From: an uncultured Fibrobacteraceae bacterium
Lineage (GTDB): Bacteria > Fibrobacterota > Chitinivibrionia > Chitinivibrionales > Chitinispirillaceae
Direction of reading: 5' to 3'
Length of the DNA: 32,000 bases
Assembly (NCBI GenBank): GCA_963735155.1
Contig: CAVTJU010000003.1
Coordinates: forward strand, 1,147,319-1,179,318
A model generated the notes under the pieces. It had not been told where the DNA came from and made no database searches. It was given only the letters and a program-made list of their open reading frames with translations. Below are positions 9 to 27,412 of this stretch, one piece after another. A program made the position numbers and the translations under genes. The stretch's first letter is position 1. Each line of letters opens with the position of its first letter.

Positions 9-3000
9 TTAACGTCCAATTCCTATTAATCCAACATGTCTGGAGTCTTTATACTTCTTAAGGATTTTCGGGTCACCAGAGTAATCGAGAGTAACTACTA
101 CTTTGTAAATACCAGGAGCTACCTTCATTCCTTCAGAATTGGAACCATTCCAGTAGAGATCGATAGAATAGACAGTTGTATTTCCAATTGCTCCCTGTGG
201 AATAGTCGTAAAAATGTTAGGATGCTCTTTTGAGGCAACAAGGTTACCGGCGATATCATGAATCTTTACCTGGCATCGTAAGCGAATCAGATCTTTTTCA
301 TTTCCGTCTGGAAGCACAATCGGGAATGTAATAACAGTGCCTCCATTATCAGTGCGAACCCACGAACGTGCATTCATTTCATGAACGATATTGAAAACCC
401 CCGGACCTGTACGGCGGAATGTCGGTACAGCAGGATTCGGTACAGAGTAGAGCGGCGGATTTTTAGTATTAATAATCAGCACCATAGATTTACGGTTGTT
501 GAGTACAGGAGTATTTCCCGCACCGCCATTGACATCTTTGAGATATGGAATTGAATCCGTCAGGCTGAAGAAATATCTGGATGATATATCAACACCATTG
601 GAAGTAAAAAACTGCAGCTGTGTTCCGTTATAGCTGAGAATATTATTTATACCTATAAGAACACTATCGACACGAACGTATTTGCCTTCCGAATTAAGTT
701 CCCAGACATAGAACATTTTATAAGGTGCATCAGCACTGGTAGGTTTACTTCCATCAATTACTCTTACAACCGGTTCGCTAAATTCGATTGTTATGAGATC
801 TTTTTTGCGGTCTTCGATATCATTGATCTGTTTGGTTACTTTCCAGATTACAGGGCCGGCGCCATCTGTTGTTTTTAAATTGATAATTGATTCTAACTGA
901 AGCGGATTGAAACCTGCATAAGATATGGTAGGTGTCCAGGCCGTCTGAGGAACTTCTGTTACATTTTCCTTTAATACCAGATGCCATATCGTGTCTTTCT
1001 GGCCATGATTACCGCTTATGCTGTCTATTTGGAAAATAGTATTATTGTACTGAATAGTCATTCCCGGGAATAGGAATCCCTGAGGCAGTGTAACACCTTT
1101 ATTAAATATTAAGTCGATCCCATCAAGTAAACCATCTCCATCAGTATCGCGGGTAATTGCTGTCTTTACCTGAGCAAGTGGCCCGGTCAATTTGACAACT
1201 GTTTTGCTTGATATCAACGGGAAGTCATTTGAATTTGCTTTCAATACTCCGGAGGTATTGTCAATAACACCTGAAGCATCATACAGAATTCGGGATACTT
1301 TCAAAGGGTTAATGATTGGTGGAATCGTTGGGTCTGAACTCCAGTTACTTGTTTCAGGACCGCGCCGGTTTCCATATTTATCATATCCAATTGCAACGAC
1401 CATTACATCTTTGTCGTGATAGGTCAGGACCAGAGTATCCAGTACCGCTTTCCCATCTCTTTCTAGTACGATATTATCAAGCTTTCCAGGAAGCACCTCG
1501 AATGGCGGTGTTTCTGCTTTTATGGTTCCTATGTTGACTATGATCTGATGAAGGCTATCAGTATTTTGCGTAGCGTAGAAAAGCCGCAGATCAACAGTAT
1601 CAACGGCATTATGGAAACACTGCTTGTCAGTCAAATTGGACAGGTATACCGTATCTTTTCCATTCAGGATTACAAAAGGTTTTGGTCTTCCTGTTGGATC
1701 AAGAATATCGCTGTATCTAACCTGAGTCATATCAAAACAATATTCTCCGGGTACTTTACCGTCCTGGTTGTAAATTGTCACCACAGCGATAATCGGCTCG
1801 CCTGCGATTCTTTGATCCTTTGGAGTTACTATATCGATAGTCACTCTGGTCGGAGGCCCGATTGTAAACTTAGCGTCTATTGTGTCCGGTTTTGTAACCA
1901 GATCATTTCCCAATGTAACTCTGATCCAACCGGTACCAGTATCGCTTGGTGAGAAAAACCACAGATGTGCTTTTCCGGGAGCTGGCGGCTGGGTTTTCAG
2001 ATTGGTACTGGTTTCCCATTTAGCATCTACATCCTCCCATAAAGCTGTATCAGACCGTAATCCTTGAACCCGGATCGTTGTATCCTGATTGGTATTCATT
2101 GTTAATGAATTTATGACAACGTTCCCGCTGAGAATCCGAAGTGCGGTGTAGTGATAAGGGAGTAGTTTTACTACTGTAGTATCACGAAAACCTATTACAT
2201 CAACCGCGAATACTTTTGCAGTACCTACCATCTGCTTTCGTTCGATAACACCTTCACCTAAATTGACATTGCCTTTTTTAATGGTAATGATCGAATCGTT
2301 GTTTACAACACCCCATTCACTTACATTAGCATAGTTTACGTAATTACCGAGAGAATCTCTTAACACTGCATAAACCGATGTATTGTTCATACTATCAGTT
2401 ACCATGACCGTATCGATCGGATTTGGCTTGTTGGGGCTACTCTTCCAGTTTGGACTGCCTTCAATAACCAGCTGTGCGGGTTTGTTAGGAACAATTTTCA
2501 ATAGAACTGTATCCCGAATGATTGTCTGATTGTATAACAGAGAAGAAATAATGTAGACAGACTGATACGCTTTAACAGGTAAGAATCTTCGTGCGTGACC
2601 GATGGAATCATCCATTTTACCTGTTGAATCAAATCCCGGCATTTCCTGAACAGCCCAGTGAATTTGTTTACTTTTGTTGCTTTCCAGTTCGTATTCAGGC
2701 AACCATACATTTTTATGATCCAGAATCTTTGCAACCACAGGAAATGGAACACCGGCTGAATCGATCAAAGTATCGGTCGGATTTGGATAAGGTGGATTCG
2801 AGCCATCTACCGGTCCTTCTTTACCGTAAAGAACCAGTTTCGATGGTAATCCTGGCAGAACTGTTACATCGATCGTATCAGGAACAGAGCTTCCCATTGA
2901 CAGAATTATCTTTCCATGGCCTGTATCACCTGGTGCAAAATCCCAAAAATTAGATTTCAGTAAATTCATCGTCTTGCCAGTTGAAGTAATATATACCCAA

Positions 3001-6000
3001 TCTCCGCTGACTGATACCCATTGTTGATTATAAGATAACAAGCCTTGTGCTTTGAGAGTGGTATCCTGATCAGATCTCATGGTCAGTTTTTCGATTCTGG
3101 TCGATTCATCTACAACAATTCTCAGTGAATCGTAAGAAAAATCAGAAAGTACAACGTCGACTGTATCTCTTAATAAAGGATTCAGGCGATTTGTTGCAAC
3201 CACTTTAGTCTGGTTAATAGTTCCAATTCTTAGAACCTTTCCCTCACCAACCTGTGGAACACTTTCTTCTGCTTTAACTATTAAGATATCAAGGCTCTTC
3301 CAGTCGGTACTGGTAGAGTGCGATACAAAATTTCCATTTATATCACGCAAAATGGCATAGGCGGTCTTTACCGTATCCTTTTTACCAAAATCAATCGAAC
3401 CCAGGGGTTGATCATCGGTAAGCGCTAAACCGGTTATATTTGGAGTTCCTTCAATTACCAGATGATGTGCCGCTCCCGGAATTACGGTGAATGTGACTTG
3501 TGTTGTGAGCGGATCTTTATCGCCCTCTTTAAACCGTGCTGTAATTGTATATGTATTGTATGCATTCAATGGTGTAAAGGTGTTTATGTATCCATCACGG
3601 GATTTAAGTGAATCCGCAGGTGCAACTCCATTGACTTTGACAATCGTCCATGAAATCAGCTGTTTACTTGTGGCGTCGTTTTCGTATGCCGGTAACCAGA
3701 TTCCATTGCGATCGAATACTTTTGCAACGAGCGGTGTGGGTATTCCCGCAATAATGGTATCAGTTTTTGTTGTAGAATATGGATGTTGGACAAGAGGATT
3801 GCCTACTTCCTTGTATATCGCAATTTTCCCTGGAAGTCCGGGCAGGAAGACAGCGTAAACTGAATCAGGAACCGCTGTACCTCTGGTTACTTTTATCCAG
3901 CCAGTTCCAACTGAATCCGGAATGATAATCCAATTGTTAACCATATCACTGGGCACTTGAGTTTTGGTTTTTAGATTACCGGTGGTACTCCAATTTGCCG
4001 GCACAAGTTCCCAACTCTGGTTATCAGATCGCATACCTTCAACATACAATTTGATCTGTTCATCAGTACGAACGGCAATACTGTCAATGTATTTTGGACC
4101 GTTATCAAGCAGATAAATTCTTAATTTTGTGTAGTTGATATTTTGGACTTCAACGGGAACTGTATCCTGGAAGTTCTTAACGGTATCGATCGCGACCATC
4201 TTTGAACTTCCCACTGTAGAGTTCCTAAGTGCAACTCCTTCACCTAAATTAATCAATCCTTTGTCAGCTTTAAAGACCGATGTGTCAAGGCTGAGCCATT
4301 TGGTTGCTTTTGAATAGTCTACGAAATTTCCAAACCGGTCGCGAAGTATGGCATAATCATACCCTAATGTCTGGTCTGACCGTATAACCAGCGCAGACAG
4401 AGGATCGTCATTTATTGAATCTTTAATCTGCGCAGATTCCTCAATTACCAAATGATGCGCCGCGTCTGGCTTGATGTAGAGATACATTGAATCGGATAAA
4501 TTGTTTAATGTCGCTTTTACAAGCACAAGCCGGTAGGCACGAGTAGAGGAAAATGTCGTAGAATAACCGGTTAAAGCTGACAGTGTTACTTCATTGACAG
4601 GAGTAACTGACCATTTTATCTGCTGTGAAAGTGTATAATCAGACTCGTATTCTGAGAGCCATTTTGAATATGAATCGAAAAGTTTTGCATATAATTTTGT
4701 GTAAACAGCCCCGGCTGTAACAGTATCTGAAACAATTGGCGGTTGCGGGTGAGAAGCTGTTGTACCTGGATTGCCTTTTATCGGATAGAGCACAAGAGAT
4801 ATTGGAACTCCGGTAGTAAAAACAACTGGAATTGAAGCGCTTGGGCTTGTGCCTGTCAATCTAACTGAAATGGTACCATGCCCAGTATCGACAGGAGAAA
4901 AACGCCAGGCATTCTGCCCTGATGGAGGTGTGGGATTGGTCCGTAAATTGATTGAGATGTTCCAGTTTCCCGGTACATCCACCCAGCCACCAGAACCTGG
5001 AGGACCAATGCGGTCGGTACGTAATCCCTGGACATAGAGCGTTGTCGTATCTGATGTTCGCATGGTAAGAGAGTAGATTCTTTCGAGTCTTCCCTGGGCA
5101 ATATTGAACTGCATTATTCGTAAAGAATCATAAGTCGTATTCTCTATTGTAACTTTTACCGTATCCATGAATGTGGTGGGTAGATCTACTGCTCTAAAAT
5201 AGGTAATACCGGGATTACCTCGTTTTGTGACAATACCCTCACCAATAGCAGCGGTTCCATTTCTTACAGTAATCAAACCATACGGGGTCAAAGTATCCCA
5301 TCTGGTTACAGTTGAGAATGAGACCCGATTTGTAAACCTGTCACGCAAAACCGCGAACCCACGGGCTTCAGTTTGTGCCGGTCCTATTGTAATTGAGCTG
5401 TTTCCTCCAATTGGATTATCTCCGAAATCGGGAGGTGTTGAGGAGCCTTCAATTACCAGATGGTGCGCTGGACCAGGGCGAACCCAGATACGGGCGGTAT
5501 CCCGGATTATCGCTCCTTTATTATTATACTCTGCGTAAATAGTAACATAACGATACGCCTGTTCAGCAGTATATCTCACTGTTTCACCGTAGTTATTGCC
5601 TACAAATCGGTCACCAGGTCGGAGTGAAATGAAGTCCCAGGTAATTCTTGAGGTGACAGTAGGATCTTTAATAGTATCACCTTTTTGATCGATGATAAAT
5701 GCTTTGAGGCTGTCAATATCACCAGCTGTAATTGTATCATCCTCTGTTTGAATAATCAGTGATGTAGGTACAGAGAGTGTGTGAGCAAGAGATGCAAACA
5801 TTATAGCGTCATAGACAATCTGCTGCGAAGCTACTGAATTTGCGAGGAACTGTGGTTGGAAAGAAACCGCAACACCGCGACGAATAGTTGGTCCGCGTAC
5901 CGGATCCTGAACAGTATCCTGAATCGCCACAAGCACGTTAAGATCTTGGTCGCCGCCACGAGCTGGTTGTGCCTGTCCATTCAGAAATCCCTGCTGGTAT

Positions 6001-6749
6001 CCCAGCATTGTTAACCAATCTGGTCTTGTTACCGTATAACGATCCGCATCTGCCTGGCATCTTCCTTTATTGCGAGGCAAAAACTGCATTACTTCTCTGC
6101 CGCTTAATATTCTATCAACAGTATTGGAAATAATCCCATTCGCTCCTGGATATTCCAGATTTCCACTTCTATCATATACTTTAAGCCGGTTATCATTTGA
6201 TCGTTGCAATCCTATCCAGAGTGAATCGATAGTGAGAGCATCTCCTAAAGGAGGGGGCACATTATTAACATTATTGAATCCGAATGTTTCATTTGCTAAA
6301 TTTGCTGCATCATCGCCAACAGAAACGACGCCTATTTTTCGACGTACTGCTTCCTTGAGAGTATTTTCTAGATCGCCTTCATTCCATCCATTTGACCAAC
6401 CAGCATTCACATGGACAATTACATGCGGAAGCCGGCTTGCTCCCCACAGATTTTCAACCTCTGACCAGGAAACCTTATCTGATGTAGTATTAAGGAGAAC
6501 TCTTATGTTAGGAACTTGAGAAATATCAAGTGCTTTTAAAACGAAATCCCGTGTTTTTTGCCCAACTGGTTGATGCAAGCTTGCATTACTGCAATCGTAT
6601 CCCTCAGGATTATTCCAGATGATAGCAATGCGTACAGTATCTTCGTATTGGTGATTGACTCTGTAAGGAGCTTGTCCAAGAGCGGAAATACTCACAAATA
6701 AGACTGTGAGAAAGCTCAACCACAAATAGTGACTTCGTTTTTGCATCAT
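9..6749 (-). CDS. Giant (~2,246 aa) secreted modular surface/adhesin-like protein. Signal peptide, unrecognised ~330-aa N-terminal domain, tandem ~330-aa Ig-like-rich modules, DxDxDG Ca-binding-like motif, C-terminal FlgD-Ig / T9SS-CTD-like beta-sandwich.
   Basis: Uninterrupted ORF 9..6821. I prefer the ATG at 6749 (MMQKRSHYLWLSFLTVLFVSISALGQA is signal-peptide-like), which has GGGAG about 7 nt upstream. Recurrent module motifs: PGxAHHLVIEG, YAxLRDxxGNxV, GEG, LRI, QGLRSD, DTGxGxI. Also TRDTDGDGLLDGIDL. The C-terminus (VKIHDIAGNLVAS...LYWNGSNSEGMKVAPGIYKVVV) resembles FlgD-Ig-type tails. Confidence 0.85.
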   Translation of the reverse strand: MMQKRSHYLWLSFLTVLFVSISALGQAPYRVNHQYEDTVRIAIIWNNPEGYDCSNASLHQPVGQKTRDFVLKALDISQVPNIRVLLNTTSDKVSWSEVENLWGASRLPHVIVHVNAGWSNGWNEGDLENTLKEAVRRKIGVVSVGDDAANLANETFGFNNVNNVPPPLGDALTIDSLWIGLQRSNDNRLKVYDRSGNLEYPGANGIISNTVDRILSGREVMQFLPRNKGRCQADADRYTVTRPDWLTMLGYQQGFLNGQAQPARGGDQDLNVLVAIQDTVQDPVRGPTIRRGVAVSFQPQFLANSVASQQIVYDAIMFASLAHTLSVPTSLIIQTEDDTITAGDIDSLKAFIIDQKGDTIKDPTVTSRITWDFISLRPGDRFVGNNYGETVRYTAEQAYRYVTIYAEYNNKGAIIRDTARIWVRPGPAHHLVIEGSSTPPDFGDNPIGGNSSITIGPAQTEARGFAVLRDRFTNRVSFSTVTRWDTLTPYGLITVRNGTAAIGEGIVTKRGNPGITYFRAVDLPTTFMDTVKVTIENTTYDSLRIMQFNIAQGRLERIYSLTMRTSDTTTLYVQGLRTDRIGPPGSGGWVDVPGNWNISINLRTNPTPPSGQNAWRFSPVDTGHGTISVRLTGTSPSASIPVVFTTGVPISLVLYPIKGNPGTTASHPQPPIVSDTVTAGAVYTKLYAKLFDSYSKWLSEYESDYTLSQQIKWSVTPVNEVTLSALTGYSTTFSSTRAYRLVLVKATLNNLSDSMYLYIKPDAAHHLVIEESAQIKDSINDDPLSALVIRSDQTLGYDYAILRDRFGNFVDYSKATKWLSLDTSVFKADKGLINLGEGVALRNSTVGSSKMVAIDTVKNFQDTVPVEVQNINYTKLRIYLLDNGPKYIDSIAVRTDEQIKLYVEGMRSDNQSWELVPANWSTTGNLKTKTQVPSDMVNNWIIIPDSVGTGWIKVTRGTAVPDSVYAVFLPGLPGKIAIYKEVGNPLVQHPYSTTKTDTIIAGIPTPLVAKVFDRNGIWLPAYENDATSKQLISWTIVKVNGVAPADSLKSRDGYINTFTPLNAYNTYTITARFKEGDKDPLTTQVTFTVIPGAAHHLVIEGTPNITGLALTDDQPLGSIDFGKKDTVKTAYAILRDINGNFVSHSTSTDWKSLDILIVKAEESVPQVGEGKVLRIGTINQTKVVATNRLNPLLRDTVDVVLSDFSYDSLRIVVDESTRIEKLTMRSDQDTTLKAQGLLSYNQQWVSVSGDWVYITSTGKTMNLLKSNFWDFAPGDTGHGKIILSMGSSVPDTIDVTVLPGLPSKLVLYGKEGPVDGSNPPYPNPTDTLIDSAGVPFPVVAKILDHKNVWLPEYELESNKSKQIHWAVQEMPGFDSTGKMDDSIGHARRFLPVKAYQSVYIISSLLYNQTIIRDTVLLKIVPNKPAQLVIEGSPNWKSSPNKPNPIDTVMVTDSMNNTSVYAVLRDSLGNYVNYANVSEWGVVNNDSIITIKKGNVNLGEGVIERKQMVGTAKVFAVDVIGFRDTTVVKLLPYHYTALRILSGNVVINSLTMNTNQDTTIRVQGLRSDTALWEDVDAKWETSTNLKTQPPAPGKAHLWFFSPSDTGTGWIRVTLGNDLVTKPDTIDAKFTIGPPTRVTIDIVTPKDQRIAGEPIIAVVTIYNQDGKVPGEYCFDMTQVRYSDILDPTGRPKPFVILNGKDTVYLSNLTDKQCFHNAVDTVDLRLFYATQNTDSLHQIIVNIGTIKAETPPFEVLPGKLDNIVLERDGKAVLDTLVLTYHDKDVMVVAIGYDKYGNRRGPETSNWSSDPTIPPIINPLKVSRILYDASGVIDNTSGVLKANSNDFPLISSKTVVKLTGPLAQVKTAITRDTDGDGLLDGIDLIFNKGVTLPQGFLFPGMTIQYNNTIFQIDSISGNHGQKDTIWHLVLKENVTEVPQTAWTPTISYAGFNPLQLESIINLKTTDGAGPVIWKVTKQINDIEDRKKDLITIEFSEPVVRVIDGSKPTSADAPYKMFYVWELNSEGKYVRVDSVLIGINNILSYNGTQLQFFTSNGVDISSRYFFSLTDSIPYLKDVNGGAGNTPVLNNRKSMVLIINTKNPPLYSVPNPAVPTFRRTGPGVFNIVHEMNARSWVRTDNGGTVITFPIVLPDGNEKDLIRLRCQVKIHDIAGNLVASKEHPNIFTTIPQGAIGNTTVYSIDLYWNGSNSEGMKVAPGIYKVVVTLDYSGDPKILKKYKDSRHVGLIGIGR
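1459..5468 (-). repeat. Intragenic tandem coding modules of ~1 kb each: 4 full copies plus a degenerate fifth start.
   Basis: The module-start motif AHHLVIE is encoded at 5468..5448, 4460..4440 and 3470..3450. AQLVIE is at 2477..2460 and the degenerate PGKLDNIVLE at ~1492..1459. Spacing is 1008, 990 and 993 bp. The nucleotide string tcaattaccaRatgRtg recurs at the first three boundaries. Confidence 0.8.
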
Positions 6750-6807
6750 AAAATTCTCCCTTAATGATCGAATCTGTTTTTTGATCATTTTATAATCTAA
6801 GTATACA

Positions 6808-6815
6808 ATTATACA
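6808..6815 (-). promoter_or_regulatory. Candidate extended -10 (TGTATAAT) for the giant gene, inside a tandem TATACAAT x2.
   Basis: The minus strand reads ATTGTATAATTGTATAC, giving TGnTATAAT about 55-65 nt upstream of ATG 6749. I saw no convincing -35. Confidence 0.3.
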
Positions 6816-7183
6816 ATCCAAATAATATATAACTGAGAACAGAAATAGTAACCAGTTGGATAATAAAAATCAATATTTTAAATACATAAAAATTGGATTA
6901 GAACTTGAATTTCAGCCAGCTTTGAATTCATCATAATTACTCCTTCATGTTGGGTTATTCCATAGTAATTATTTAGTACTATGCAATATAAATAAGGTAA
7001 ACTTAATAAGGTATTTAATTCAATCAACTTAACATGTGTCCTTAACAAGAATGGAAAATGCAGAGTTGTGAAGTAATTTTTTTGGGGAAAAACAGGGGCG
7101 AGATTCTTAATTGATGGCTATGCGGTTTATAATTTCAGTGCAGGCCCGACAAATCTTCGATCGCAGGTTTGATGATGAAAAAC

Positions 7184-7456
7184 CATGCAGAAATCACAAA
7201 CTCCCATGCAGAAATCACAAATCCCCATGCAGAAATCACAAACTCCCATGCAGAAATCACAAACTCCCATGCAGAAATCACAAACTCCCGTGCAGAAATC
7301 ATCGCAACCTGCGCAGATATAACACAACCTCATACAGAAATCGTGGAAACTCACAATGAATTCGCAAAACCTCATATATCAACAGATAAATTCCCTTTCA
7401 GAAATAACGTACTCCCATGCAGAAATAACGTACTCCCATGCAGAAATCATGAATGC
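7184..7456. repeat. Tandem array A: 13 units of 21 bp, core GCAGAAATC on the + strand.
   Basis: Five near-identical units CATGCAGAAATCACAAACTCC (7184-7288), five degenerate units (7289-7393), and three of a second subfamily CCATGCAGAAATAACGTACTC (7394-7456). Strict 21-bp register, no spacers. Confidence 0.95.
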
Positions 7457-7470
7457 TCAGGGAATTTATA

Positions 7471-7743
7471 ATTTCTGCTCGGTTATCAGCAATTTCTGAT
7501 AGGGTACCAGCAATTTCTGATAGGGTACCAGCGATTTCTGATAGGGTACCAGCGATTTCTGATAGGGTACCAGCGATTTCTGATAGGGTACCAGCGATTT
7601 CTGATAGGGTACCAGCGATTTCTGATAGGGTATCAATGATTTCTGATAGGGTATCAATGATTTCTGGTAGGGTATCAATGATTTCTGGTAGGGTATCAAT
7701 GATTTCTGGTAGGGTATCAATGATTTCTGGGTGTGTCCAGAAT
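7471..7743. repeat. Tandem array B: 13 units of 21 bp, core ATTTCTG (reverse complement of CAGAAAT), inverted relative to array A.
   Basis: Unit B0 is divergent (7471-7491). Six units ATTTCTGATAGGGTACCAGC[A/G] (7492-7617), two ATTTCTGATAGGGTATCAATG (7618-7659), three ATTTCTGGTAGGGTATCAATG (7660-7722) and one degenerate unit (7723-7743). Confidence 0.95.
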
Positions 7744-7829
7744 TAACATGCGCGCTTCCTAAGTCCCTTTCGGGGAATTTTAGGTGGCGATAAATTTCAT
7801 GTAATACATCTATTTTGAATAAACACTAA

Positions 7830-8483
7830 TTACTTAGCATGTTTGATATCTTTCGCGTTCGCGTGGAAAATAACATCTTCTGAGATATTTGTAGAAAGGT
7901 CCGCTATGCGTTCAAGATTTTTACTTACTCTCAGGAGCTCCAGCGCACCTTCAACTGATGCTGCATTTTTTTTCACCATATTAATAACTTCACGAGTAAT
8001 CGATTTATTTAAATTGTCAACCTGATCATCCTGCTCAAGTACTTTTAAAGCTAATTGTGTATCTAATTTAACAATGCTGTTTATTGAATCTGAAAGCATA
8101 TTGATAGTGCATGATGCCATTAGTTCAATGTCATGACCAACCATAGGCTGTTGTAAGTTATTACAATTTATCGCTGATTGAGCAATATTTACCGCATGAT
8201 CTCCGATCCGCTCCAGATCCTTGTTGATTTTCTGAATTGAAAAGAGGAATCTGAGATCACTTGCAACCGGGGCTTTCAATGCCAGACATTCAAAAACTTC
8301 CTTGTCAATTTTGATCTCCATGGAATTTATTTCGCTGTCTTTGTAAATGACTGAATGGGCTAACTCGATATTCAATTTAAGAAATGCCTCATTTGCATTT
8401 CGCACCGATTCTTCAACAAGAGTAGCCATTTCTATAATCATTGTTCTTATGTGGTCGATTTCTTTCCCTAACTGCAAGATCAT
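7830..8483 (-). CDS. phoU: Phosphate signalling complex protein PhoU
   Basis: 217 aa with the two PhoU repeats (DLERIGDHAVNIAQ and NLERIADLSTNISED). GGAGGG SD before ATG 8483. Last gene of the pst cluster. Confidence 0.9.
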   Translation of the reverse strand: MILQLGKEIDHIRTMIIEMATLVEESVRNANEAFLKLNIELAHSVIYKDSEINSMEIKIDKEVFECLALKAPVASDLRFLFSIQKINKDLERIGDHAVNIAQSAINCNNLQQPMVGHDIELMASCTINMLSDSINSIVKLDTQLALKVLEQDDQVDNLNKSITREVINMVKKNAASVEGALELLRVSKNLERIADLSTNISEDVIFHANAKDIKHAK

Positions 8484-9439: not shown

Positions 9440-11236
9440 TTATCCCTGGAATGCTTGTTTTTCTGGTAAAATGATTTTAAAAGTCGATCCCTTACCCGGT
9501 TCGCTTTCGGCAAATACCTGTCCATTATGGGTTGCAACAATATTTTTAACAATAGACAATCCAAGTCCTGTCCCACCGAGCTTACGGCTCCTTGCTTTAT
9601 CAACGCGATAAAAACGTTCGAATATTCTGTCAAGATGTTCGCGTGGAATACCAATTCCCTGGTCTGAAACACTGATGATTATTTTTTGATCACTTTTATT
9701 AGCTGATATGACAATATCGCTGCCTTCATTGCTATATTTAATGGCGTTATCGATCAGGTTGACGATAGCTTGCTCTATAAGAGAAGTATTCATAACAACC
9801 TGAACTGGTTGCTCCATCGACAAGAGGATTCTGGTATTTTTTTCGTTAGCTTTTCCAGTGCATGTCTTTATTGCGTCCTCCAGAACGGTTTTCAATTCTG
9901 AATTTATGAAGCTTATCTCATGATGCTCGTAATCCCGCTCAATAGACGATAAAGAAAGTAAATCATCCACAATTCTGCACAGACGATCTGTTTTTGATGA
10001 AATTATATTCAGAAATTCCGATACCTCACCAGGAAGTTGATAATTGCCAGTCTGAATGGTTTCAACAAACCCTTTTATCGATGTTAGCGGGGTTCGTAAC
10101 TCATGCGATACATTTGCAACAAATTCCTTTCTGATATTTTCAAGCTTTTTTAATCTGGTAATATCGTTAAAAACAAGTACTGCCCCTTCCGGTCCGCTTT
10201 TTTCATTATTGAGTATTGTCCCCGAAGCATTTACATTTAGATTACCATTGGGTGTATGCAGAATAAATGTAGTTTCTACAATGGTATCGCTTGATAATAC
10301 GTGAGTAGTGAATCTCTGAAGCGTACTGTTTCTTATGATTTCATGCAGCCATTTGTCACTTACAGAACCATCTGGTACGCTAAAAAGACTGGCTGCCGCA
10401 GGGTTTATGGATATGATTTTTTCTTGTGCATCAATAGCAATGACACCTTCAGTCATGCTGTTTAAAATAGCCTTTGACTGATTATGCTGGCGGGTTATCG
10501 TCACGATACGGTCATCGAGTGTTGAAGCCATTCTATTGAGTGAAGATGCTAATACACCGAGTTCTTCGCCGTGAGCGACAGGCAATCTGAAATTCAGATC
10601 ACCAGATGCAAATCTTTTAGCACCTTCGGTAATTTGGCTGATTAGTTTACTTAAATGTTTTGAAAGTAAATAGCTCACCAGTAAAAGCAATGCAAAAATA
10701 ATAAGTGATGCAAATACAACCCGAAGGTAAAACTGACGCTCCTGCTTTTTAATGGCGTTAATTGATACAGACATTCGCAATGCAGCGACAGCTGTTTTAT
10801 TAGATGTAAAAATTGGAAACGCAACATACAACATCTCATCCTGCATGCTTGTACTGAATCTTTGCTGAACGCCTCTTCCACCGCTAAATGCTTTCAATAT
10901 TTCCGGACGATTACCATGATTTTCCATGGAATCAGGATTCCTCTGTGAATCACCTATTACTTTTCCTGAAGGGAGGACAACTGTAATGCGCACAGAGATC
11001 GAATGCCCAATTGTTTTACATAAACTATCAAGTGAACCATGACGGTCTGGATCTGAAATATAATCAGTTAATTGTCTTTGTATAAGATAGGCGAATCTGG
11101 AAACATCATTGACTGTATTTTCCAGATAGAGCTGATTATACACTCTGGCAGAATACCAGGTTGTAATCCATATAGTTACAGATATAATCACAAAGCAGAC
11201 AAGAAAGAATTGCCAGGCTAATTTACGAATACGCAT
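9440..11236 (-). CDS. phoR: PhoR-type sensor histidine kinase (2 TM, HAMP, PAS, HisKA, HATPase_c)
   Basis: H-box [12 protein letters not shown] box [11 protein letters not shown] boxes DQGIGIP and [10 protein letters not shown]. Genomic context with phoB/pst. The ORF track starts at TTG 11245; ATG 11236 (MRIRKLAW...) is the likelier start. Confidence 0.85.
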
Positions 11237-16441: not shown

Positions 16442-16469
16442 TGTTAGCCAATTGTTAGCCCATTGTTCA
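16442..16469 (-). promoter_or_regulatory. Candidate Pho box: three 11-bp-phased hexamers (minus strand TGAACA-n5-CTAACA-n5-CTAACA)
   Basis: On the + strand, TGTTAG at 16442-16447 and 16453-16458, and TGTTCA at 16464-16469. These lie 36-63 nt upstream of the porin ATG. Confidence 0.4.

Positions 16470-22872: not shown

Positions 22873-22873
<1 letters not shown>
21446..22873 (-). CDS. gltD: Glutamate synthase (NADPH) small subunit
   Basis: Fe-S cysteine clusters (CMDCGIPYC and CPAPCEAAC). Dinucleotide motifs IAIIGSGPAGLAAAQQL and VLVIGGGDTGSDC. Its ATG overlaps the gltB stop (TAATG). Confidence 0.95.

Positions 22874-27412
<4,539 letters not shown>

Follow-up and report, generated by a model that had tools for sequence, protein, structure and literature searches.

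Several described systems resemble, each in part, the repeat block that is the subject of this analysis. In Haemophilus influenzae, the repeat hairpin in the 5' untranslated region (5'-UTR) of hmw1A is processed by RNase III (PMC12721329). LytTR sites consist of repeats of 9-11 nt with 11-13 nt between them, about 21 bp from centre to centre (PMC4847170), and BldC forms a cooperative filament on direct repeats whose number varies (PMC5859096); thus, operators of variable length exist. The block considered here lies in a stretch of 32,000 nucleotides (the window) from an uncultured Fibrobacteraceae bacterium (assembly GCA_963735155.1, contig CAVTJU010000003.1), in a 1080-bp gap between phoU and the gene for a giant secreted surface protein; both flanking genes are on the - strand. 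It is a non-coding pair of 21-bp minisatellites, here called arrays A and B, in an intergenic region of fast turnover. The block is best seen as an ordinary hypervariable minisatellite, in which one older part of array A, as a putative row of protein-binding sites, is a hint of something more.

How far do the likenesses go? An intergenic variable-number tandem repeat (VNTR) upstream of a surface-protein gene is a kind of locus already known. The (ATCTTTC)n tracts of H. influenzae hmw1A and hmw2A share with the window a head-to-tail tract ahead of the gene for a very large surface protein, blocks of identical units as slippage leaves them, and a repeat content that differs in close relatives; folding predictions suggest that the window repeats, if transcribed, could also form a long hairpin, as those of hmw1A do. 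Here, however, the unit is 21 bp rather than 7 bp, the arrays lie 434-994 bp from the giant-gene start codon and form two opposed arms, the predicted hairpin is not conserved in the sister lineage (L154 below), and the tract is absent before orthologous giant genes. The operators of LytTR regulators such as AgrA and YpdB are comparable in geometry: a core of ~11 nt, a spacer of ~10 nt (slightly short), an exact 21-bp period and a head-to-tail order. The last A repeat also abuts a possible -10 hexamer, a consensus match only, with a poor -35, and suboptimal promoters are typical of activator-dependent promoters (PMC4227749). By contrast, there are 8-23 repeats here instead of 2, the 32-kb window holds no LytTR gene, and the window core matches no known LytTR consensus. 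The BldC repeats differ in being 9 bp long and contiguous (AATTNNNNC) instead of spaced at 21 bp, and no BldC-like gene is seen in the window.

Two opposed arrays of 21-bp units

A first-pass annotation of the window had described two opposed arrays of 21-bp units, 13 unit lengths each, and this layout holds. Tandem Repeats Finder (TRF) and a repeat finder place 21-bp tandem arrays at 7183-7301, 7392-7447 and 7471-7729, with TRF counting 5.7 copies at 94% identity in A and 12.3 copies at 96% identity in B; ATTTCTG recurs 13 times at an exact 21-bp spacing from 7471 to 7723. Array A starts at 7183 and includes one unit of 22 bp. The core that the units share had been called invariant, which it is not: the exact CAGAAATC is present in 18 of the 26 units (8/13 in A and 10/13 in B) and the shorter CAGAAAT in 23 (10/13 and 13/13, respectively). 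In the window as a whole, CAGAAATC occurs 21 times against 1.9 expected.

Where the arms meet, GCAGAAAT at 7440 opposes ATTTCTGC at 7471. The 14 bp that had been given for the hinge is the distance between the array ends, whereas the facing cores are 23 bp apart. Direct reading of the units bears out 12 matches in 21 positions (CAGAAATC, one C and CCC) when unit B is reverse-complemented and set against unit A, and the proposal that both arrays diverged from a single ancestral unit stands. The helical twist summed over unit A is 720 degrees. Blocks of identical units exist in both arms, but their composition is not quite the one first reported (5; 6+2+3): the A block is made of four identical units and one near copy, and B reads 1+1+5+2+3+1. 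Such blocks had been ascribed to slippage or unequal crossover, an origin with which the sister lineage, where the expansions are lacking, agrees.

Could the arrays be an artefact of assembly? Short-read (Logan) contigs of other samples that encode an identical giant protein end at about 7212, 30 nt into array A and inside its expanded block, and further short-read contigs end within a B-type array. That contigs from other samples break inside the arrays shows these to be real. The block had also been placed correctly, with the phoU stop (7830) on one side and the giant gene on the other: the true start of the latter is the ATG at 6749, preceded by the ribosome-binding site (RBS) AAGGGAG. In addition, Pfam and NCBIfam scans found no rep, par, cas, integrase or LytTR genes among the open reading frames (ORFs) of the 32-kb window. 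Clustered regularly interspaced short palindromic repeats (CRISPR) have repeats of 23-55 bp, unique spacers of similar length and, usually, cas genes; here the units abut, each with ~11 bp conserved and ~10 bp variable, and the block had rightly been set apart from CRISPR loci.

Recent expansion of an older tract

The history of the arrays can be followed in three relatives: L001 and L002, which belong to the same species as the window (98-99% identity over the pho operon), and L154, a sister lineage with 88% nucleotide identity across 10 kb of the pho operon. L154 has the layout of the window, with phoU, a gap of 1254 bp and a giant gene of 2192 aa. Its gap holds ~10 diverged A-type units of 21 bp, most of them with CATGCAGAAAT, followed by the hinge CTCAGGGACTTTATGATTT and by just 2-3 decayed B-type units; blocks of identical units are absent. 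Units 6-13 of the window, described earlier as decayed, are orthologous to the A-type units of L154. This old A tract (7288..7456) has kept the CAGAAA(T) core while the remainder has diverged; in blastn it aligns with L154 at 79% identity over 181 bp, and the flanking intergenic DNA does not align. Within it, ATGAATTCGCAAAA-CTCAT-TATCAAC-GATA-ATTCCCTTTCAGAAAT is nearly identical in window and L154. The 22-bp unit is common to both and is thus not a sequencing error.

Because the expanded blocks are absent in L154, the homogeneous blocks of the window (5 A units and ~12 B units) are recent expansions in the window strain. The B-type arm is vestigial, with 2-3 decayed units, in both L154 and L001, and the B-type edge units of L001 resemble those of L154 and differ from those of the window. 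The two-armed, opposed architecture, to which some significance had been attached, is therefore not a conserved one. Exact copy numbers within the species are unreadable, as short-read contigs break in the arrays; across the wider comparison, the suspected copy variation is borne out by single diverged units in L154 against blocks of 5 and 12 in the window. Head-to-tail copies of high identity, together with repeat content that differs among close relatives, are the marks of a minisatellite. Control of the giant gene by repeat number, as had been proposed, would suit the place of the arrays on the upstream side of that gene.

How, then, did two arms of equal length come about? The common ancestor of the window strain and L154 carried ~8-10 heterogeneous A-type units and 2-3 inverted B-type units. 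In the window strain, one A unit grew to 5 copies and one B unit to ~12 copies, presumably by replication slippage or unequal recombination, to which tandem blocks of identical units are ordinarily ascribed. The expansions yielded the opposed arrays of 13 + 13 units and, with them, a potential imperfect hairpin of 270 bp. The 13+13 symmetry is a coincidence of expansion history and not a conserved trait, and the long A:B hairpin is likewise recent and strain-specific, both being presumed products of slippage.

Beyond L154 the gap changes altogether. Only the window and L154 lineages have the 21-bp tract: in L166 the giant gene is preceded by another array (43 bp x 6.7 copies) and by four hairpin elements, L167 has a plain AT-rich gap of 577 bp, and L170 has a 232-bp gap beside thiF, with the pho operon not in between. 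Since orthologous giant genes are preceded by a 43-bp array, a plain gap or a gap of 232 bp, the 21-bp arrays are not needed for the giant gene. The other side of the gap varies as well: a lineage with 93% PhoU identity has a tmRNA (transfer-messenger RNA) gene and a lacI-type gene after phoU, a 79% lineage has transposase fragments, and a 75% lineage has a rhomboid gene 30 bp from phoU. The end of the pho operon is, on this evidence, a synteny breakpoint.

Possible constraint on the old tract

If the block turns over so fast, why has one part of it been kept? Of the whole gap, the old A tract alone can still be aligned between the window and L154, and the hinge is conserved too. Over seven orthologous unit pairs, 1 of 42 sites differs in CAGAAA (unit positions 6-11) and 34 of 105 in the remaining positions (Fisher P = 3e-5; P = 4.5e-4 in a permutation test corrected for picking the best 6-position window). 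That the conserved core bases are contiguous and without a wobble pattern speaks for a constraint at the nucleic-acid level, not the protein level. The B-type cores have decayed in L154, and the B arm shows no constraint.

These observations suggest what the old A tract might be: a head-to-tail row of protein-binding sites, one per two helical turns, each with a conserved core of ~11 bp (CATGCAGAAAT) and a free spacer of ~10 bp. Such a row may lie just upstream of a + strand promoter in the hinge and could activate it. The idea that the arrays form iterons, a parC-type site or a large operator thus survives in its last part: an operator is plausible for the old A tract, where CAGAAA is selectively conserved, and iterons and parC are discussed below. 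The reading that we favour, a minisatellite expanded from an older periodic tract in which the old A tract is a putative row of phased binding sites, is held here at even confidence. A change in copy number would alter the number of sites and turn the block into a VNTR operator. In the full form of this idea, phased sites (~8 in L154 and up to 23 cores here) would make a hypervariable operator, in which slippage heritably retunes a promoter beside the rapidly evolving giant gene; this extension is tentative and rather unlikely.

Several points weigh against binding sites. The core test leans partly on units 6-8, for which one-to-one orthology is uncertain, and any aligner always puts periodic cores in register; units 11 and 13, which are clear orthologues with an intact core, give 0/12 against 8/30, a contrast not significant alone. 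Found in two lineages only, the tract is young and dispensable. The 32-kb window encodes no candidate for the binding protein, and the extended motif is found at no other window promoter; its one near-match, inside the giant gene, equals the chance expectation. In the AT-rich, 1080-bp gap, TATAAT occurs three times on the + strand, and the hinge match is just one of these. Known direct-repeat operators, moreover, have 2-4 repeats, not 8-23.

Taken at full weight, these points would leave a purely neutral minisatellite, a selfish or accidental product of slippage without function, and would make the core conservation an alignment artefact helped by small numbers. The region does gather unrelated repeats in every lineage (REP-like hairpins; the 43-bp array and four hairpins of L166), the tract is missing before orthologous giant genes, B cores decayed freely in L154, and units 11 and 13 lack a significant core contrast of their own. 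Intergenic 21-bp arrays are, furthermore, common across phyla: among the matches listed in the genome scan described below, ~40/85 of the 8-mer arrays lie outside long ORFs. Uniform decay, on the other hand, would hardly give 1/42 against 34/105, nor does it account for a tract that alone in the gap still aligns between two lineages and adjoins a hinge that is conserved as well. We consider full neutrality unlikely, with an appreciable chance of being right, and return to the favoured reading, an expanded minisatellite with putative binding sites in its old tract, as the frame for what follows.

Possible hairpin RNA and heptad-repeat proteins

The opposed arms would also fold back on each other in a transcript. 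A transcribed repeat RNA could arise on the - strand, as the giant-gene leader or by pho read-through, or on the + strand, as a small RNA; either the A:B hairpin or the repeated CAUGCAGAAAU would then act post-transcriptionally. Folding predicts the long A:B hairpin on both strands (-220 kcal/mol, z = -10.0, on the - strand; -198, z = -11.7, on the + strand), and the - strand RNA gains four G-U pairs per unit, bringing the paired positions to 16/21. A precedent exists in the hmw loci, whose repeat tract, placed before the gene for a large adhesin, folds into a hairpin of the 5'-UTR (PMC12721329). In L154, however, folding of the orthologous region yields no structure of significance (z = +1.0 and -0.4), on which ground a conserved long hairpin of the hmw type, predicted in the window, was rejected. 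The helices are just 9-10 bp between internal loops and would be a poor RNase III substrate, Rfam holds no RNA family that matches the arrays, no convincing - strand promoter was found upstream of them, and their distance from the start codon speaks against a leader element. An RNA with such a role is accordingly improbable in our estimate.

Might the repeats encode protein instead? Every frame is open over the homogeneous units, and heptad-repeat small proteins could be read from a + strand ORF at 7169-7471 (HAEITNS), a + strand ORF at 7453-7746 (ISDRVPA) and a - strand ORF at 7466-7720 (QKSLVPY). Of the variable B sites, 3/4 are synonymous in the QKSL[VI]PY frame; the HAEI frame is open through array A and closes at a matching position in the window and L154, by TAA in one of them and by TGA in the other. 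Open frames are nevertheless expected of any stop-free 21-bp repeat, and L154 carries stops in all six frames over the tract. The 35 differences between orthologous units divide 15/9/11 by codon position of the best frame, with no third-position excess; amino-acid identity in the best shared frame, ~61%, is at chance level for a DNA identity of 83%; and by a rough count the shared frame has a ratio of nonsynonymous to synonymous change (dN/dS) of ~1 or above. Neither the GAA codon nor the 4-fold site of the GCA codon ever varies, although both belong to the conserved core. In the genome collection the three main ORFs are not called as genes, and none of them has a family match above the cut-off. 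That small proteins are the product is very improbable, which agrees with the non-coding assignment made at the outset.

Replication, partition and other candidate DNA elements

Direct repeats of about 21 bp also bring to mind the iterons of a replication origin (17-22 bp), a parC-type partition centromere or a polar fork trap. The arrays share with iterons and parC repeats tandem direct units of ~21 bp on one helix face, beside AT-rich DNA (here at 6780-7080), and the opposite polarity of the arms also speaks for a reading of this group. The setting is different: the contig is chromosomal, 1.23 Mb long with housekeeping operons, and rep, par or rtp-like genes are not found in 32 kb. The gap has no DnaA box, the window total of such boxes is below chance, neither GC skew nor gene strand switches at the site, and a search of 72,556 plasmids and 50,697 phages found no similarity. 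L154 has neither the B arm nor homogeneous repeats. Iterons, moreover, are conserved over their whole length, whereas the old-tract units differ outside the core. All these functions are scarcely credible here. A centromere of the parC/parS type was also set aside on its neighbours, which are phoU and the giant surface-protein gene and not a par operon.

With phoU next door, a PhoB operator (Pho box) was considered and rejected: the arrays have a 21-bp period, and their core is unrelated to the candidate TAACA box with its 11-bp period. A probable Pho box of that sort stands elsewhere in the window, upstream of the porin O/P-pst operon at 16442-16467 (TAACA x3, 11-bp period; AACAATGGGCTAACAATTGGCTAACA), and its counterpart in L154 (2040-2065) is identical. 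Intrinsic curvature from phased AAAT tracts was rejected as well: the arrays give 3.3-7.0 degrees/turn against a window mean of 7.8, and the ratio of end-to-end to contour length (0.94 in A, 0.85 in B) compares with 0.875 in random segments; this wedge-model result is indicative only.

Occurrence of the repeat elsewhere

Is the phased core found in other genomes? A genome scan for three phased CAGAAATC cores, covering 185,579 species, returned at least 119 loci. Among the matches listed, ~60% are 7-bp microsatellites of the type (CAGAAAT)n and the remainder 21-bp arrays of unrelated sequence, of which about half lie within long ORFs; the 21-mers of the window have no counterpart among the matches listed, which do not include the source genome. 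A stricter pattern found 32 unrelated loci in the metagenomes of the Joint Genome Institute (JGI), none with a blastn match to the window. The phased CAGAAATC signature, then, is not specific. A search of the literature on 21-bp intergenic repeats in bacteria or Fibrobacter found nothing relevant.

The (CAGAAAT)n microsatellites occur in many phyla, for example in Brachyspira (L004, L008, L047), in Niabella hirudinis (L011, L052, L069, L076) and on nine contigs of a Bdellovibrionales metagenome-assembled genome (MAG), CAYOOT01. The tract of Brachyspira begins right after an RBS and ATG, an arrangement that resembles phase variation by frame shift; many contigs of Niabella and of the Bdellovibrionales MAG end in such a tract.

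Among the unrelated 21-bp arrays picked for CAGAAATC, the next three bases are RTT in ~13/48, against 1.5 expected (RTT-bearing loci: L013, L022, L032, L034, L038, L043, L070, L077, L083, L086, L088, L117, L143 and L147). Several of the arrays being inside long ORFs, a heptad that recurs, for example QKS[FL] or EI[VI], may lie behind this excess. A 'Fibrobacter sp.' MAG has two intergenic 21-bp arrays (L022 3159-3340; L043 1370-1650) that share the 12-mer TCAGAAATCGTT but otherwise have units of different sequence; one is flanked by convergent genes, and the other sits in a gap of 1.1 kb. Kinship of these two with the window arrays is doubtful: their decay is uniform, with no special core, and the resemblance is probably coincidental.

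The surroundings of the arrays

The features of the locus are listed in Table 1. The spacer between the arrays and the giant gene presumably holds the promoter of that gene; within this spacer (6750..7182), promoter consensus matches are weak only and show no excess over shuffled sequence. The giant protein has zero Pfam or NCBIfam matches, and its homologues, highly divergent, come from Fibrobacterota only (Chitinivibrionales/Chitinispirillaceae). Named homologues of PhoU and of the giant protein belong to Chitinispirillaceae, Chitinivibrionales or 'Fibrobacter sp.' MAGs. To the right of the gap, the pst/pho operon comprises two phoU genes, porin O/P, pstS, pstC, pstA, phoB, phoR and pstB.

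Table 1. Coordinates of the gap and its flanks, in window positions
Feature	Position	Strand	Description	Basis
Giant secreted surface-protein gene	9..6749	-	2246 aa; RBS AAGGGAG; N-terminal signal peptide	ORF list and sequence
AT-rich spacer upstream of giant gene	6750..7182	.	does not align with sister lineage L154	
Array A, recently expanded block	7183..7287	+	five units of CCATGCAGAAATCACAAACTC: 4 identical, 1 with 2 changes	
Array A, old heterogeneous tract	7288..7456	+	eight units; 22-bp unit 7372-7393; local duplication 7394-7435	
Hinge between arms	7457..7470	.	conserved in L154 as CTCAGGGAMTTTATRATTT	
Possible -10 hexamer TATAAT	7467..7472	+	18 nt past last A core; L154 has TATGAT at equal spacing	
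Array B	7471..7743	-	13 units, core inverted; blocks 1+1+5+2+3+1	
Small hairpin element of REP/BIME type (CCTAAG..TCCCTTTCGGGGA..TTTTAGG)	7750..7790	.	terminator-like site 7764-7776, + strand	
Homology breakpoint	7813	.	17 bp past phoU stop; L001, L002 and L154 align rightward only	blastn
phoU, last gene of pst/pho operon	7830..8483	-	stop at 7830	Pfam PhoU, E = 8e-45

Small hairpins resembling repetitive extragenic palindromes or bacterial interspersed mosaic elements (REP/BIME) stand just downstream of phoU, with ends CCTAAA(A)...(T)TTTAGG, and vary by strain in number and orientation: there is one in the window (7750-7790), three of alternating orientation in L154 (10729-10862) and two in L001 (about 9590-9700). 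The window copy probably also ends the pho operon. In L166 (1978-4000), two giant genes stand in tandem, and the 2-kb gap between them holds the 43-bp array (3237-3525); the hairpin element of this gap, present in four copies, reads CCCCAGAGGTGAATTATT...AATAATTCACCTCTGGGG. L155 (11286-11636), like L156-L158, represents the lineage with 93% PhoU identity: it lacks the giant gene, and after its phoU comes a tmRNA gene (tag AEDYSFAMAA) on the opposite strand.

The giant gene itself is mosaic. Only its 3' 1.6 kb (of 9-6749) aligns with L154 11909-18487, at 83% DNA identity, and the giant proteins of the window and L154 are roughly 40% identical, as judged on L154-like homologues, beside a pho operon at 88% DNA identity; this pattern suggests allele replacement or diversifying selection. 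Elsewhere in the window, the gene for the glutamate synthase large subunit (22873-27412) is broken into several ORFs, of which 26903-27412 and 25336-26964 overlap, and the split suggests frameshifts, either real or due to long-read assembly errors.

Implications

What does the block mean for the organism? If it is only a minisatellite, its weight is practical: short-read assemblies break exactly here, and the block marks a hotspot of strain variation beside a mosaic giant surface-protein gene in uncultured Fibrobacterota. If CAGAAA does mark binding sites, the old tract would be an unusually long direct-repeat operator of varying length, and slippage-driven copy number would be tied to regulation in a phylum with almost no described transcriptional regulation.

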